This document shows, in pieces, positions 9,231-63,935 of a stretch of DNA of 64,000 nt. Made by a program: the position numbers and the translations under genes. The notes beneath the pieces were generated by a model. It ran no database searches. It saw nothing but the letters and a program-made list of their open reading frames with translations, and was not told the DNA's origin. The stretch lies in the NCBI GenBank assembly GCA_000146465.1, contig CP001948.1. One strand, given 5' to 3'. Position 1 is the stretch's first letter. Each line of letters begins with the position of its first letter.

Positions 9231-9336
9231 TTAAGCAGGGAATTTCTGGAGCCTTATTTAAGATGCAAGCACTACCTGAACATCCACCTTTAAAGAAGCA
9301 AGTAAAGAACCAGAAGTAAATGTTTAATATAACTTC

Positions 9337-9732
9337 TTATTTCTTCTTCATCGTTTTGAGGGGTTTCTTGGGCCTCAGATCCTTACTGTCGCACTTTCTG
9401 CACTTCTGTGCAGACTTCCCAGACCTCGCATAACATCTTCGACAGATAAGACAGTCGTTTTTTTCCTTCATGGCCATGGCACCGTCGTTTTCAGACATGT
9501 TTCCCCCTCCTCCAAGAAGTCTGGGATACATTGTAATTGTATCGAGATTCCTTATGCCATAGCTTGCCACTGTGTTGGAATCCTCCAATATTCTAGAGTT
9601 GTGCTGCAGAACTACCATTGAAGAACTAAGTCCACAGGCGTTTCCGGCAAGGCCTTTCAAAGACAGAATAGGCTCCGATGGATCGGCCTGAACAAACGAA
9701 GTCTTTCCACAAAACCTCACTACAATCTTCAT
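9337..9732 (-). CDS. RPL40: Ubiquitin-like domain fused to ribosomal protein L40e (UBA52-type fusion with a highly divergent Ub moiety)
   Basis: The C-terminal CLICRRCYARSGKSAQKCRKCDSKDLRPKKP matches L40e (CRKCYAR...NLRPKKK). It is preceded by MKIVVRF...RLLGGGG, a ubiquitin-like fold. The internal ATG at 9732 was chosen; the ORF-track 5' extension has no support. Confidence 0.7.
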   Translation of the reverse strand: MKIVVRFCGKTSFVQADPSEPILSLKGLAGNACGLSSSMVVLQHNSRILEDSNTVASYGIRNLDTITMYPRLLGGGGNMSENDGAMAMKEKNDCLICRRCYARSGKSAQKCRKCDSKDLRPKKPLKTMKKK

Positions 9733-9814
9733 TCTTAAAGGGCAAAAATTTCCAGAGTAAAATCTGTGAAGTTCTCCAGACAGCCTGGGGACAATACAAG
9801 TAAAGACATTTATT

Positions 9815-10069
9815 CTACTCAAACATTCGATGGCAAATCCAGTACACTCGGCACATGGGGCATATTTTCCTCTGCTGGAGCCACAATGCTATGCAATGCG
9901 AATGGAAGGTGTGTTTACACTTGCCTATGCATGGCTTGCACTCGATAGGATGCTTACATTTTATGCACATCTGGTCAAAACTCTGCTGGCATATCCCGCA
10001 TATATCGCTTTCTATGTCCCATTTCCAATTGTAAACAGGATAGACTTTCTTAATCTTTATTTCGACCAT
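9815..10069 (-). CDS. RING-box protein (Rbx1/APC11 family RING-H2)
   Basis: WKWDIESDICGIC...C.KC...C....GKCKHTFHSHCIALWL...ICPMCR is the RING-H2 zinc-finger pattern of APC11/Rbx1. Confidence 0.7.
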   Translation of the reverse strand: MVEIKIKKVYPVYNWKWDIESDICGICQQSFDQMCIKCKHPIECKPCIGKCKHTFHSHCIALWLQQRKICPMCRVYWICHRMFE

Positions 10070-10818: not shown

Positions 10819-10878
10819 GCTACCTTACGATTAAAGGTTTTCTTCTTATTTTTTATTCCTTCCTAAAGGCCCTACTTG

Positions 10879-11742
10879 ATGCTGAACAATAAGGGAAGGA
10901 TCCATTCTATGAGCGGAGGATTTAATCTAAGAGCACCAAGGGAATATGGATTGTTTGAGGACATTGATTTTCCTATGTCTTTAGATTCCATGGATGAGCT
11001 GGACACTAGAAGTAGCATAGGGGCCATGAATGGAACAGAACTCCGAAAGGATGGCATAGAGAGTTTGTTTATAAGCAAAAAGAATGACTACAAAGAAGTG
11101 AAGGAGGAGGAAAAGTTCAACCCGTACGAAGACAACTCGGGAACAACTGTTTGCTTGAAACAGGATGACTTCATTATTGTTGCTGGAGATACAAGACATT
11201 CGTCGGACATGGTCATTAACTCTCGAGAAATGTCAAAAATATTTCGGATGGGGAACTTTCTTTTGACCGGGACAGGATTTTATGCAGACACCTATGAAGT
11301 CTATAGGAAAATGACAGATGAAATACTCCAATACGAAGTCGATGGGCCCATGAGTATTCATAGCTCGGCAAATTTGCTCTCAAAGATTTTGTACTCAAGA
11401 AGGTTTTTCCCATACTACTCGTTCTGTACTCTAAGCGGATTTGAGAAGGGAAAAGCTTACCTTTATCAATATGATCCTCTAGGATCTTATGATCTTACAA
11501 CATGTGTATGCAAGGGAAGTGGAAGAAGCATGATTCAACCTCTGCTGGACTCGTTTATTGACAAAAAGAATTGGAATAACGCGAGTGATGCACAGATAAG
11601 CCAGGAAGACTGTATAAGACTGGTTGTAAAGGCATTCAATTCGGTAGCAGAGAGGGATATAAAGACTAAGGACAATCTGGAGATCTATGTTGTAAGAGAA
11701 CACGAGCTGACTCACCAAATTCTCCCTCTGAGAAGAGATTAA
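10879..11742 (+). CDS. Proteasome beta-type subunit (beta6/PSMB1-like) with a long propeptide
   Basis: FNPYEDNSGTTVCLKQDDFIIVAGDTR...LLSKILYSRRFFPYYSFCTLSGFE..GKAYLYQYDPLGSY...GSGRSMIQPLLD matches the beta-6 family. ORF-track position 10876 is TTG, and the first ATG is at 10879. The propeptide length is uncertain. Confidence 0.8.
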   Translation: MLNNKGRIHSMSGGFNLRAPREYGLFEDIDFPMSLDSMDELDTRSSIGAMNGTELRKDGIESLFISKKNDYKEVKEEEKFNPYEDNSGTTVCLKQDDFIIVAGDTRHSSDMVINSREMSKIFRMGNFLLTGTGFYADTYEVYRKMTDEILQYEVDGPMSIHSSANLLSKILYSRRFFPYYSFCTLSGFEKGKAYLYQYDPLGSYDLTTCVCKGSGRSMIQPLLDSFIDKKNWNNASDAQISQEDCIRLVVKAFNSVAERDIKTKDNLEIYVVREHELTHQILPLRRD

Positions 11743-20092: not shown

Positions 20093-20163
20093 GGGCCCTT
20101 AGTATAATGGTAGAACACTTGGCTTCGGACCAAATAGTCCGGGTTCGAATCCCGGAGGGCTCG
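20093..20163 (+). tRNA. tRNA-Arg (anticodon TCG)
   Basis: GGGCCCT acceptor arm pairing with AGGGCTC, T-arm CCGGG-TTCGAAT-CCCGG, anticodon loop CTTCGGA (TCG), and a 4-nt variable loop. 71 nt, no CCA. Confidence 0.7.
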
Positions 20164-21013: not shown

Positions 21014-21086
21014 ACCCTGTTAGCTCAATAGGTAGAGTGTTGGACTTTTAATCCAACGGTTACGGGTTCGAGTCCCGTGCAGGGTG
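21014..21086 (+). tRNA. tRNA-Lys (anticodon TTT)
   Basis: Cloverleaf with acceptor ACCCTGT/GCAGGGT, D-arm GCTC-AATAGGTA-GAGT, anticodon stem TTGGA/TCCAA with loop CTTTTAA, and T-arm ACGGG-TTCGAGT-CCCGT. Confidence 0.8.
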
Positions 21087-26709: not shown

Positions 26710-26781
26710 GGGGAGTTAGCTCAGCGGTAGAGCGCTTGCTTAGCATGCAAGAGGTCATGGGTTCAATCCCCATACTCTCCA
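26710..26781 (+). tRNA. tRNA-Ala (anticodon AGC)
   Basis: GGGGAGTTAGCTCAGCGGTAGAGCGCTTGCTTAGCATGCAAGAGGTCATGGGTTCAATCCCCATACTCTCCA. It has the diagnostic G3:U70 wobble pair of tRNA-Ala, anticodon loop TTAGCAT, and discriminator A. Confidence 0.9.
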
Positions 26782-42395: not shown

Positions 42396-43670
42396 ATGAG
42401 TAGAGACAAATCAGAGCAGGATAATCTTCAAGACACAACTACAATAAACTTGAAGAGACGTAAAAGAGTGAAGGAAAGTAAGGCAGCTTCTAAACCTCCA
42501 CAGGTATATCCTCAGATGAAGTGTAAACTAAGGTACTTGAAATTGAAGAAACTAGCTCATTTGTTGTCATTGGAGGACAGTATATTGAGCTTGTGCGAGC
42601 CTGACAAGTCCTCCGAAGGATCCAACAGCCAAAAGCATGTTGTCGAGCAACTTCGTGGGAGTCCTCTCTCTGTTGGGACACTTGAAGAGTTTATTGACGA
42701 CCATCATGGAATAATTACTACTGGTGTTGGCTTGGAGTACTATGTCAATATAATGTCCTTTGTTGACAAAGACTTGCTTGAGCCTGGATGTACTGTTCTT
42801 TTGAACTATAAAGACAACAGTGTTGTGGGAGTTCTGGAAGGAGAAATGGATCCTATGGTTAATGTAATGAAATTAGAAAAGGCACCTTCTGAGACTTACG
42901 CAGATATAGGAGGTCTTGAGGAGCAAATCCAGGAAATTAAGGAGAGTGTTGAACTTCCGCTTATTAATCCAGAGCTTTACCAGGAAATGGGGATAAAGCC
43001 CCCAAAGGGGGTAATTTTATATGGGCTTCCTGGAACAGGAAAGACTCTTCTAGCTAAGGCTGTGGCAAACCAGACGTCTGCAACCTTCCTTAGGGTTGTT
43101 GGAACAGAACTGATACAGGAGTACCTTGGAGAGGGGCCAAAGCTTGTTCGAGAACTTTTTAGGGTTGCCGACATGCATGCTCCATCGATAATCTTCATCG
43201 ACGAGATAGATGCAATTGGAGGAAGAAGATACAACACATCCTCTGGGGGTAGAAGAGAGGTTCAGAGGACAATGTTAGAGCTCCTGAATCAGCTGGACGG
43301 ATTTGATACTAGGAATGATATCAAGGTGATAATGGCTACTAATAAGATAGAGGCTCTTGATCCGGCTTTGATCAGGCCTGGAAGAATCGACAGAAAGATC
43401 GAATTTGGAATGCCAGACGCAGCTACAAAGAAGAAAATCTTCGATATTCACACTTCAAGAATGACTTTGGATGAAAGTGTAAATATCGAATCTTTGATAA
43501 CAAGTAAGGAGGATTTGAGTGGTGCTGACATAAAGGCTATATGCACGGAAGCTGGGATGATAGCATTAAGAGAAAGAAGAAAAACTGTTACAATGAAAGA
43601 TTTTATTTCTGCAAGAGAAAAGGTATTCTTTTCAAAACAGAAAATGGTCTCAGCCGGGCTTTATTCTTGA
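42396..43670 (+). CDS. RPT2: 26S proteasome regulatory subunit Rpt2 (PSMC1/S4 AAA-ATPase)
   Basis: [91 protein letters not shown] is near-identical to Rpt2 orthologues. The C-terminal GLYS-type tail is present. Confidence 0.9.
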
Positions 43671-61887: not shown

Positions 61888-62394
61888 ATGGAAAACTTAA
61901 ACGATGAGGATATCAAACTCAAAAGTTCCCTAGAAAACACATTTAAAGAAATAGATCAATTTTTTAGTGATGCTGGGATTATCTTTTCTAAATCGGAACA
62001 CTTTAATCTTGTGAAAGAAATTAATGCCACAATGAATAGCTTTCTTGGCCCTCGAAAAGAAATTTATAATAGGAACGTTCAAACTAATGCTAAAAACTTT
62101 TTGGAGAGTGCTAAAGAAGTTGCAAAGGCATTTAAAGAAGTTTTCAATTCTTTAAAAAAAGAATCCATCGAAAGTTTCAAAGAGGCTTACAAAAAATATA
62201 ACAGAAAAGTAGAAAATTCTAAAAATATTTATAGTGAATTGGAAAAATGTCTTTCTGAGTATGGAAGTCATACCTCCAGTGCCTGTTCGGGAGTTTCTTC
62301 TAGTATTCCAGGGAAAGAAACTTCATGCAAACATTTAAAATCAGAAAGAGCTAATAGGGCTTTAAGTCAAGCTTTGAGCTTTAAAAAAAAATAA
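61888..62394 (+). CDS. Hypothetical helical/coiled-coil protein. Likely the N-terminal part of a larger gene continuing in ORF 62400..63935
   Basis: ATG start. It ends ...ALSQALSFKKK* inside an A9 homopolymer. Confidence 0.4.
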   Translation: MENLNDEDIKLKSSLENTFKEIDQFFSDAGIIFSKSEHFNLVKEINATMNSFLGPRKEIYNRNVQTNAKNFLESAKEVAKAFKEVFNSLKKESIESFKEAYKKYNRKVENSKNIYSELEKCLSEYGSHTSSACSGVSSSIPGKETSCKHLKSERANRALSQALSFKKK

Positions 62395-62399
62395 TTCCA

Positions 62400-63935
62400 G
62401 TGAACAGGAATTTATTAGAAAAAGTAGAAGGATTAGAAAATTCAATCAATCAATCTATCAAAAATATAGAAAAAAAACTATCCCATATTGAGAGTGTTCG
62501 AAAGTGTCTAGAGAAGGCGAAGAGTGAAAGTTCGAGAGATTTTAACATTTTAGAAATCTTGAAAAATAAGATGTCTGCCTTGGATACAGGTAAAATGGAA
62601 TCCTACCTAAAGTGGAAAAAGGATCAAGTTCAATTATATGATGACATTCTAAAAGAAAATCAAGAGAAAATTGAAGTTTTCTTAAACAACTATAGAGAAT
62701 ATTTGAGACATAAAAAAGAGAAAAGAACTTCTTCTGTTGTCAGGGAGGCTTTTGGAGTAGTAGAAAGCTTTCAGGACGTAAATAGCTCCTACAATAGATT
62801 TCTCTCCCTTCTAAAAGACCATTGGAAGTTTTGGAAAGATATCTTTCGCCATCTAAGAAACAATGATGATGGAAACTGGTTATCAGAAGTAACAGGAAAT
62901 GAAGAAAGAATCTCACCGACAAGCGATATCGAGACTTTTTTAGATACCCCTGTCTCCCAAGACTTGCTTTTTGATCCTCAAAAGTTGGAAGAATTGTTCT
63001 CTGGAGAAGAAAGCCAAGTTCTGGAACCCATCCAATCAGCTATCGAATTTCTTAATCAAATTCAACATTACGATAAAGACACCACAGAGATTCGTGAATA
63101 TGCTCAGTCTATTATTCGTACCGATATCTACAGAGTTTTCGTATTGAAATATTTATTAAGGGAAAGCCCAGTACCGGAATTCTCTTTGGAATCTTCTCAG
63201 CAGGATGCCCTCGTCTCTGAGATCTTAGAAAGTGATTATTTCCTCTTTTTTTGCCTTCTTGTGTGTTCTGGATTGATTGCTCTTCAAAGTATCTTTAGAA
63301 AGACTAGTACATCCAAAGAGACAATGAATGCCTTGGGAAAGATATCATATGCAGTATCTATTCTTGGCCCAATTCTACATGGGATGTGGATACTATCAAA
63401 TGAAAATTATAGTGAAGGGATTATTAAAGTAATAAGCAGTAACTGGAATGTGATTGCAAGTATGGCTCCTATGTTTCTTGTTCTTAGAGATATTAAATAC
63501 ATAAAGAATGGAGAACTAATGACATCAGAAGGGGCAACAGCCATAGGAGGCCATGGCGTAATTGTGGCCATGAGCATGATCATGATGTGTGCACAAACAC
63601 TTGGAAAGAAACATGAGGGAGAATATAGTAGACAAACAATGGTATTTATGGCTGGAAACATCATAATGACAACAATGTATGGTGCGAAGTTATTTGGGCC
63701 ATGGACTAAGAGCAGGAATCATTTTATTATACTCGGATACATTGTGTTTGCACTTATACTTTTCTTAATGGTTATGATGAGTGAAAAGAAAAAGATAAAG
63801 AATCGAACTAATGACAAAACAGAATGGATGGGGGTGCTCCAGTGGATTATAATATGCACGTTTCTTATACTTGGACTACAAAAACCTGAGTTTCACTGTC
63901 TTCAGTATGCTAAAAATGAAATTATAGTTTCATGA
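62400..63935 (+). CDS. Coiled-coil region followed by a 6-TM membrane domain, hypothetical. The ORF-track start is GTG and the first ATG is at 62571. Probably the C-terminal continuation of 61888..62394
   Basis: The reading frame stays open and protein-like (LEKVEGLENSINQSIKNIEKKLSHIESVRKCLEKAKSES) from 62400, immediately after the upstream ORF's stop. The C-terminal half has 6 hydrophobic helices. Confidence 0.4.
   Translation: MNRNLLEKVEGLENSINQSIKNIEKKLSHIESVRKCLEKAKSESSRDFNILEILKNKMSALDTGKMESYLKWKKDQVQLYDDILKENQEKIEVFLNNYREYLRHKKEKRTSSVVREAFGVVESFQDVNSSYNRFLSLLKDHWKFWKDIFRHLRNNDDGNWLSEVTGNEERISPTSDIETFLDTPVSQDLLFDPQKLEELFSGEESQVLEPIQSAIEFLNQIQHYDKDTTEIREYAQSIIRTDIYRVFVLKYLLRESPVPEFSLESSQQDALVSEILESDYFLFFCLLVCSGLIALQSIFRKTSTSKETMNALGKISYAVSILGPILHGMWILSNENYSEGIIKVISSNWNVIASMAPMFLVLRDIKYIKNGELMTSEGATAIGGHGVIVAMSMIMMCAQTLGKKHEGEYSRQTMVFMAGNIIMTTMYGAKLFGPWTKSRNHFIILGYIVFALILFLMVMMSEKKKIKNRTNDKTEWMGVLQWIIICTFLILGLQKPEFHCLQYAKNEIIVS

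Follow-up and report, generated by a model that had tools for sequence, protein, structure and literature searches.

In the canonical ubiquitin-eL40 fusions, human UBA52 and yeast Ubi1 and Ubi2, a ubiquitin-fold unit is followed by a Gly-Gly pair and the zinc-ribbon ribosomal protein eL40. The ubiquitin moieties of yeast Ubi1/2 and Ubi3 act as cis chaperones for eL40 and eS31. Without the ubiquitin of Ubi1/2 or Ubi3, yeast runs short of eL40 or eS31, respectively, a defect relieved by overexpression of the genes, and SUMO partly substitutes for ubiquitin in Ubi1, while free ubiquitin in trans does not (PMC8122580). For the subunits to function, both precursors have to be cleaved (PMC8122580; Martín-Villanueva et al.). 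Here we analyze a gene with the same order of parts in the microsporidian Encephalitozoon intestinalis ATCC 50506, located at positions 9337..9732 on the minus strand of a 64,000-nucleotide stretch of contig CP001948.1 (assembly GCA_000146465.1), which in its full length is called the window below. Its ubiquitin-like (Ubl) unit is only 30% identical to ubiquitin, whereas those of UBA52, Ubi1, and Ubi2 are ~96-100% identical. By analogy with the yeast and FUBI precursors, we consider it likely that this unit serves as a cis-acting, cleavable leader of eL40 that is not used as ubiquitin once freed.

Diverged ubiquitin in ribosomal fusions is already known. The moiety of S27a fusions was reported to diverge in 13 of 18 species (Catic and Ploegh 2005, as cited in PMC10457151), and the UBL-1-eS31 protein of Caenorhabditis elegans (PDB 9bh5_Af), like other divergent UbS27a proteins, also has a degenerate ubiquitin attached to a ribosomal protein. 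In those organisms it is the eS31 fusion that diverges while the eL40 fusion is canonical, which is the reverse of the situation in microsporidia. Divergent eL40-linked ubiquitin has been described as extremely rare, being known earlier only from Giardia, to which two Plasmodium lineages were added (Dalhuisen et al. 2023, PMC10457151). In the UbL40 of the Plasmodium vivax and P. ovale lineages, the eL40-linked ubiquitin has diverged and another gene is canonical. The Plasmodium divergence is, however, recent and mild, affecting ~15% of the sites, compared with ~70% in E. intestinalis, and in microsporidia it extends to all genera sampled. The Giardia eL40 and eS31 fusions likewise carry a strongly diverged ubiquitin with the fold kept, and a chaperone-only role was proposed for them (Catic and Ploegh 2005; Catic et al. 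2007, both as cited in PMC10457151). Giardia is nevertheless an independent lineage, and its eS31 fusion is reported to be uncleaved owing to a G-A-G junction (PMC8122580), whereas the microsporidian G-G is intact. A further parallel is FUBI-eS30 (FAU), in which a Gly-Gly-ended, ubiquitin-like leader without the chain-forming lysines of ubiquitin is carried by a small basic ribosomal protein and is removed by a ubiquitin-specific protease (USP), USP36, before subunit maturation (PMC8354635, PMC8122580). The partner in the present case is eL40 rather than eS30, which has been lost in E. cuniculi, and the leader is of a different origin; the relationship is one of analogy, not of membership.

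When 1.84 billion representatives were scanned in full with HMMER for eL40 fusions, divergent members outside microsporidia were found in Giardia muris and G. duodenalis (P0128, P0130), Barthelona, the nematodes Meloidogyne hapla and Mesorhabditis belari, and the scale insect Parthenolecanium corni, and a profile search added the tick Ornithodoros turicata. The animal fusions (P0037, P0080, P0083, P0220) are presumably extra copies; their identity to ubiquitin is 59% in P. corni, 41% in M. hapla, and 29% in M. belari. The escape of eL40-linked ubiquitin from conservation may thus be more common than the literature states. The surveys by Catic and Ploegh and by Dalhuisen et al. include no microsporidian. 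No discussion of the microsporidian eL40 leader was found in the literature searched; microsporidia go unmentioned in a review on ubiquitin and the ribosome (PMC8122580), as does ubiquitin in the paper on the E. cuniculi ribosome and its supplements. The microsporidian case therefore appears to be undescribed in searchable papers. It stands out by its extreme degree, by its presence in every genus sampled, and, unusually, by a loss of ubiquitin identity in the eL40 fusion instead of the eS31 fusion.

The ubiquitin-like leader and its conservation

The open reading frame (ORF) encodes a protein of 131 residues, MKIVVRF...LRPKKPLKTMKKK, which is 100% identical to ADM11897.1, annotated as "putative ubiquitin/L40 ribosomal protein fusion" of E. 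intestinalis ATCC 50506. The gene is thus already annotated, and it encodes the precursor of the large-subunit ribosomal protein eL40. The ubiquitin-L40e fusion recognized in the initial annotation, which was made from the sequence alone, is confirmed by this identity and by two Pfam matches above the respective cut-offs, PF00240 (ubiquitin, residues 4-69, 32.2 bits, cut-off 25.4) and PF01020 (Ribosomal_L40e, residues 85-123, window 9364-9480, 31.7 bits, cut-off 23). A longer ORF of 161 residues starting from TTG 9822 was rejected as an artefact of the ORF listing, the true start being ATG 9732. The parts of the gene and its flanks are as follows.

9733..9753, minus strand: promoter and transcription-start signals, with an AAATTT-like signal at 9744-9751 and a CCC-like motif at 9740-9742
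9508..9732, minus strand: Ubl domain, residues 1-75 (Pfam PF00240, AlphaFold2, Foldseek, and the ratio of non-synonymous to synonymous divergence, dN/dS)
9508..9513, minus strand: Gly74-Gly75, equivalent to G75-G76 of ubiquitin, the predicted cleavage site (alignment of 18 microsporidian sequences)
9340..9507, minus strand: eL40 moiety, residues 76-131 (Pfam PF01020), followed by the stop codon at 9337-9339
9391..9444, minus strand: the four zinc-ribbon cysteines C97, C100, C111, and C114 (CRRC...CRKC), invariant in alignments A1 and A2
9323..9328, minus strand: ATTAAA, a putative polyadenylation signal 8 nt past the stop, conserved in position

The eL40 moiety begins with a short flexible N-terminus (GGNMSEND...), which is followed by a helix and then by the zinc ribbon. 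Presence in the large ribosomal subunit is known for the E. cuniculi orthologue only, which is 80% identical over the whole protein and is found in the ribosome structure 7QEP as chain P0 (E = 1e-68); the sequence record of this chain in the PDB comprises the full 131 residues. Microsporidian orthologues are present in four ribosome structures, and the place of 7QEP chain P0 identifies the gene as the orthologue of UBA52 and Ubi1/Ubi2.

When aligned over all 76 residues, the leader is identical to human ubiquitin at 23 positions (30%), somewhat more than the 20-25% estimated in the initial annotation. The loss of K48 and K63 noted there is correct, as is the Asn at position 63, but K48 is replaced by Arg, the Ser assigned to it occupying position 47. 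In addition, K6 is replaced by Arg and K29 and K33 are lost, while K11 and K27 are retained. The recognition patch is altered at all three of the positions compared, with I44 changed to Gln, V70 to Tyr, and L8 to Phe. The orthologues of E. hellem and E. romaleae have Lys at position 48; since it is Arg in E. intestinalis, this position is merely basic and does not represent a conserved acceptor. The leader ends with P-R-L-L-G-G followed by two further glycines, so that R72, L73, G75, and G76 are kept, R74 is changed to Leu, and the residue after the Gly74-Gly75 junction is Gly and not Pro. The similarity to human FUBI (27% identity over 56 residues by BLASTP) is weaker than that to ubiquitin.

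An AlphaFold2 model built on an 11-sequence alignment has predicted local distance difference test (pLDDT) values of 88-94 at residues 1-72, with strands and helix in the same order as in ubiquitin. The linker (residues 75-80) is below 50 and thus predicted to be disordered, while the eL40 part is at 80-89. When the eL40 part was modelled from a single sequence, the pLDDT was 61 and the secondary structure was wrong. In a Foldseek search of the PDB with the full model, the top 50 matches were all ubiquitin chains, variants, or fusions; the single-domain matches cover 72-76 columns with root-mean-square deviations of 1.1-2.3 Å, target TM-scores of 0.81-0.91, and 25-32% sequence identity. The beta-grasp outline suggested initially thus agrees with both the model and its structural matches. 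According to the model, which is confident in this part and deviates by 1.2-1.9 Å from ubiquitin, residues 1-75 fold as a ubiquitin beta-grasp, yet they are no longer ubiquitin.

The selection acting on the leader was estimated with the Nei-Gojobori method between Encephalitozoon species, with the following results.

Ubl leader: dN 0.14-0.18, dN/dS 0.15-0.31
eL40 part: dN 0.01-0.06, dN/dS 0.02-0.07
uL22: dN 0.02-0.08, dN/dS 0.03-0.07
Neighbouring proteasome subunit: dN 0.15-0.23, dN/dS 0.06-0.19

Within the leader, changes of the non-synonymous kind occur 3-6 times less often than synonymous ones, which is a significant difference (Fisher p 3e-4 to 5e-10). The leader evolves as an ordinary, fairly fast Encephalitozoon protein, unlike neutral DNA. 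Between E. intestinalis and E. cuniculi, 19 of the 77 leader residues differ, at a proportion of differing synonymous sites (pS) of 0.54. We also observed that pS in the Ubl codons (0.37-0.58) is, with the exception of a single species pair, below that of the gene's own eL40 codons, and it is also below that of most neighbours (0.5-0.85), being similar to that of the V-ATPase c gene. A second, overlapping constraint on these codons was considered and set aside, as the V-ATPase c gene shows similar values; the low synonymous divergence probably reflects codon bias or small-sample noise.

In a wider comparison, 18 microsporidian leaders from Encephalitozoon, Vairimorpha, Hamiltosporidium, a Paranosema-like sequence, and several Logan or ENA sequences were aligned with human ubiquitin. 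The 14 positions of the ubiquitin core are hydrophobic in 91% of the cases, compared with 33% elsewhere. K27 is kept in most of the sequences, as is the Asp at ubiquitin position 52, the partner of K27 in a buried salt bridge of ubiquitin. L43 and L50 recur in 17 of the 18 sequences, and none of them lacks G75 or G76; the G-G is also present in further sequences fetched in addition. At position 72 most sequences have R or K, and at position 73 the residue is L, V, or C, while I44, L8, V70, H68, K48, K63, K29, and K33 vary freely. The preservation of the core, of K27/Asp52, and of Gly-Gly while the surface varies is what one would expect of selection that sees nothing but a folded, cleavable domain. 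The initial statement that the moiety has been "released from constraint" holds only for the constraint of remaining ubiquitin, since selection continues to act on the fold, on the K27-D52 pair, and on the Gly-Gly.

Compared with the leaders of other genera, that of E. intestinalis reaches 18-32% identity and is thus no nearer to them than to human ubiquitin (30%), while the eL40 parts are 45-58% identical. In the Vairimorpha apis group about 10 leader residues are deleted and ubiquitin goes undetected by Pfam. A profile search found more divergent leaders with G-G in Nosema bombycis, N. granulosis, V. necatrix, Pancytospora philotis, and Glugoides intestinalis, and the PDB chains of V. necatrix (6rm3_LMM) and Paranosema locustae (6zu5_LMM) likewise have divergent leaders with G-G. 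For Spraguea (7qca_LMM) the match is confined to the C-terminal part, approximately residues 41-128, consistent with a divergent leader. The divergent leader is thus common to every microsporidian genus sampled. A separate observation concerns a 136-residue protein (P0092; contigs L015 and L016) in which a 96% canonical ubiquitin is joined to eL40 by a linker, GGAGDKKMDP..., that resembles the Paranosema-type microsporidian linker. It could represent a lineage predating the divergence of the leader and is carried only by metagenome contigs of ~600-700 bp.

These data also bear on the possibility that the leader, once cut from eL40, is activated and conjugated as a working modifier specific to microsporidia. 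The C-terminal R/K-L-x-G-G motif is retained across microsporidia, the modelled fold is intact, and the domain is under purifying selection, all of which speak for a modifier. On the other hand, the surface is unconserved between genera, which fits poorly with a partner set of conserved enzymes and readers, and I44, R42, K48, and K63 are not retained. Moreover, sequences of the V. apis type dispense with some 10 residues of the domain to the point that the Pfam ubiquitin family no longer matches, and FUBI has the same kind of tail although no FUBI conjugates have been reported (PMC8122580). We therefore regard a modifier function as improbable.

Ubiquitin sources elsewhere in the genome

In the window itself, TBLASTN searches with human ubiquitin, yeast and human S27a, Smt3, Rub1, Hub1, and Urm1 matched only the ORF described above; a Rub1-like match at 62228-62323 (E = 0.22) was dismissed, being weak and without Pfam support. 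In E. cuniculi, a gene annotated UBIQUITIN, ECU02_0740i, adjoins the L7A gene, and its mRNA ends were mapped by rapid amplification of cDNA ends. A primer within it encodes VEPSDSIE, in which T22S is the sole difference from ubiquitin residues 17-24. The protein was then located by an exact-sequence look-up of candidates consisting of ubiquitin with T22S and one extra residue. The 77-residue sequence MQIF...RGGY (P0171) is "UBIQUITIN [Encephalitozoon cuniculi GB-M1]" (CAD25104.1 / UBIQ_ENCCU), which is human ubiquitin with T22S and a C-terminal Tyr and hence 75/76 identical to the human protein. The same exact protein is found under ADM11068.1 and KAL7346248.1/KAL7348189.1, while the E. intestinalis Ubl-eL40 is found under ADM11897.1 and KAL7345445.1/KAL7347347.1/KAL7349354.1. 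From the shared accession series we infer that both genes are present in the same E. intestinalis genomes. In both E. cuniculi and another Encephalitozoon assembly, the mono-ubiquitin gene is flanked by the L7Ae and poly(A) polymerase genes, and between these two assemblies 30 of 52 synonymous sites differ (pS 0.58) with zero amino-acid changes. As a side observation, the exact 77-residue Encephalitozoon-type ubiquitin also occurs on three metagenome contigs of 33-71 kb, L007, L012, and L013 (JGI 3300001589, ENA ERZ27249100, and JGI 3300025138, respectively), where, a weak U-box excepted, the neighbouring genes are nearly devoid of Pfam matches.

The second source is the ubiquitin-eS31 fusion, represented in E. 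cuniculi by the 152-residue chain 7qep_E1. Its ubiquitin part was assessed by subtraction of bit scores, which provides a bound and not a sequence. With a query composed of Encephalitozoon ubiquitin and yeast S27a, the chain scores 197.3 bits over residues 1-146, and it is not among the 60 best matches to S27a alone, the last of which scored 70.3 bits. An identical ubiquitin would score 152 bits, of which the ubiquitin part thus supplies at least ~127, and the ubiquitin moiety of the E. cuniculi eS31 fusion therefore appears near-canonical. By the same subtraction, the contribution exceeds 148 bits in Spraguea (7qca_SFF) and 118 bits in V. necatrix (6rm3_SFF), while exact subtraction gives ~66 bits for the C. 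elegans UBL-1-eS31 and ~74 bits for the eS31 chain 5xxu_f. Within the bound set by these scores, microsporidia thus appear to combine a near-canonical ubiquitin on eS31 with a degenerate one on eL40. The ubiquitin supply of Encephalitozoon found here consists of one mono-ubiquitin gene and the ubiquitin-eS31 fusion.

The window also contains two proteasome components, a 20S subunit (PF00227) at 10876-11742 (plus strand) and an Rpt-type AAA ATPase with a proteasomal OB domain at 42396-43670 (plus strand). The organism therefore has machinery that needs canonical ubiquitin.

A reading in which the leader is still a functional ubiquitin, or one of several, and is divergent only through fast evolution has to be weighed at this point. 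Microsporidia do evolve fast, and the neighbouring proteins differ by 3-40% between Encephalitozoon species. However, the genus keeps a 75/76-identical ubiquitin that shows no interspecies amino-acid change at a pS of 0.58, whereas the leader, between the same kinds of genomes, differs at the 19 of 77 residues given above at a comparable pS of 0.54, and it lacks the I44 patch, K48, and K63. This reading is already contradicted by the present data, and we give it practically no credence. The initial annotation was right that ubiquitin is nearly invariant even in microsporidia; its proposal that the leader does not act as a ubiquitin source is upheld by the mono-ubiquitin gene and the near-canonical eS31 fusion, so that the lack of any other ubiquitin source, named there as grounds for rejection, does not apply. 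Its alternative, an unusually fast-evolving lineage, is insufficient as an explanation in view of the unequal rates of the two proteins. With 30% identity and without K48, K63, K29, K33, and the I44 patch, the leader cannot be counted as a source of ubiquitin, and the label "ubiquitin/L40 fusion" in microsporidian annotations should not be taken to indicate one.

Expression, processing, and the role of the leader

The 21 nt directly upstream of ATG 9732 on the minus strand read GGAAATTTTTGCCCTTTAAGA. The same 21 nt are found in E. intestinalis, E. cuniculi, E. hellem, E. romaleae, and an Encephalitozoon-like Logan contig, while the sequence farther upstream diverges; a more distant relative carries GTAAAATTTTTACCCTCAAA before the gene. 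For the E. cuniculi "L40 ribosomal protein fusion", Peyretaillade et al. 2009 give the matching string AAATTTTTGCCCTTTAAGA (PMC2803860). According to the same work, the ribosomal protein genes of five microsporidia are preceded by an AAATTT-like signal and then a CCC-like motif, and the mapped 5′ untranslated regions (UTRs) of E. cuniculi are shorter than 7 nt. As the signals abut ATG 9732 and the mapped 5′UTRs are this short, transcription starts just before the ATG of the leader. At the other end of the gene, four Encephalitozoon species and the Logan contig L004 share an ATTAAA in the same position behind the stop codon; it is one of the AAUAAA-like signals of E. cuniculi genes (PMC2803860) and, judged from its sequence and position, a putative polyadenylation signal here.

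The position of these signals is relevant to the suggestion that the Ubl codons remain untranslated, eL40 being made from an internal start at Met79 and the upstream frame being a decaying relic. In Entamoeba, eL40 has no ubiquitin and begins with Met-Gly-Ile-Glu-Pro (supplement of PMC10457151), and in Encephalitozoon a Met does follow the glycines, whose codons form a G-rich run before it. Nevertheless, all of the ~25 microsporidian sequences examined have an open frame of conserved length, non-synonymous changes are several times rarer than synonymous ones as described above, the contrast between core and surface is that of a folded protein, and the conserved promoter signals abut ATG 9732, and Met79 is unconserved in V. 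apis and Hamiltosporidium. An internal start is thus very improbable. The initial annotation had considered that a downstream transcription start might leave the N-terminal region unexpressed; the promoter signals and the purifying selection on the Ubl codons point the other way.

Based on these results, we favor the following sequence of events. Transcription would begin at the ribosomal-gene signals before ATG 9732, and the message would be translated as one 131-residue chain, in which the ubiquitin-fold leader would aid in cis the production, folding, and solubility of the small, very basic eL40. A ubiquitin-specific protease would then cut behind the conserved Gly-Gly, i.e., after Gly75, and eL40 alone would join the 60S subunit. 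The freed leader would not be employed as ubiquitin, the supply of which would come from the mono-ubiquitin gene and the ubiquitin-eS31 fusion. E. hellem has five proteases of the USP family, one otubain, and Rpn11 (PMC12324444). The in-cis chaperone role, already suggested in the initial annotation, is thereby supported and is probably correct, on the analogy of the yeast and FUBI precursors.

Several points weigh against the leader being such a cleavable cis-acting aid. Cleavage in microsporidia is something we infer from the analogous precursors, and many deubiquitinases bind the I44 patch; because I44 is replaced by Gln, a standard enzyme might fail to process the precursor. The chaperone effect on eL40 in yeast is, moreover, called minor (PMC8122580). 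The tail R-L-L-G-G still resembles a C-terminus that can be activated by E1, and to judge from this sequence conjugation may be possible. Finally, the dN/dS values are approximate, because dS is near saturation in several of the comparisons.

In an alternative reading, the leader stays on ribosomal eL40, near the factor-binding site and the P stalk, and would regulate translation or hibernation there. In addition to the Gln at position 44, which could weaken recognition by deubiquitinases, this alternative can draw on the ubiquitin-like-eS31 fusion of Giardia, reported to be uncleaved (PMC8122580), and on the speculation by McLaren et al. that eL40 and eS31 may be hubs of hibernation signalling (PMC10522483). 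The Giardia case has, however, been ascribed to an Ala inserted between the glycines, whereas the G-G is intact and invariant here, and uncleaved ubiquitin-eL40 impairs 60S function in yeast (PMC8122580). Two papers on microsporidian ribosome structures, in the text searched, mention no ubiquitin-fold density on eL40, which is an absence of report and does not constitute a test. Retention of the leader is in our judgement unlikely.

The same can be said of the broader idea that the eL40-linked ubiquitin of microsporidia has turned into a separate Ubl with a job of its own, exercised either after its release or on the ribosome, for which the odds are low. Possible jobs would be that of a lineage-specific modifier or that of an assembly or hibernation switch near the P stalk. 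If true, this would amount to a change throughout the phylum in which the eS31-linked ubiquitin stays canonical, the reverse of other protists.

The interpretation of the leader as a cleavable cis-acting aid to eL40 has consequences beyond this gene. The genomes of microsporidia, which face extreme pressure toward reduction, have retained only the fold of the leader, its buried core, K27/Asp52, and the Gly-Gly, and can thus be regarded as a natural experiment. The retained pattern is the one predicted for a cis-acting, cleavable aid, which argues that this role, and not the supply of ubiquitin, keeps the eL40 fusion. The protease that would cut Ubl-eL40 is, in turn, a possible drug target, as it would act at a parasite-specific step in ribosome production.

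Neighbouring genes and other features of the window

The genes at the locus are, in order, Spb1/FtsJ, V-ATPase c, a 160-residue protein, a protein with an RNA recognition motif (RRM), Ubl-eL40, a RING-H2 protein, uL22, and the proteasome subunit. The order is alike in E. cuniculi, E. hellem, E. romaleae, and two further relatives, whose orthologous loci were fetched. The RING-H2 protein has 84 residues and is encoded directly upstream of Ubl-eL40, at 9815-10069 on the minus strand (~2137-2391 in L001-L004). It matches the Pfam families zf-rbx1 (63 bits) and zf-ANAPC11 (54 bits) and is 87-96% identical among five Encephalitozoon-type genomes, with a ratio of non-synonymous to synonymous proportions (pN/pS) of 0.02-0.09. 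The gene is absent from the gene calls for E. cuniculi, E. hellem, E. romaleae, and the Logan contig L005, where either nothing or an ORF on the opposite strand is called instead.

Toward the end of the window, a 511-residue protein at 62400-63935 (plus strand) matches DUF1686 with 122 bits, and the GC content drops from ~0.42 to 0.35 between 56000 and 64000; together, these two features may indicate that a subtelomeric region is being approached. Three tRNA genes are located on the plus strand, Arg(TCG) at 20093-20163, Lys(TTT) at 21014-21086, and Ala(AGC) at 26710-26781.

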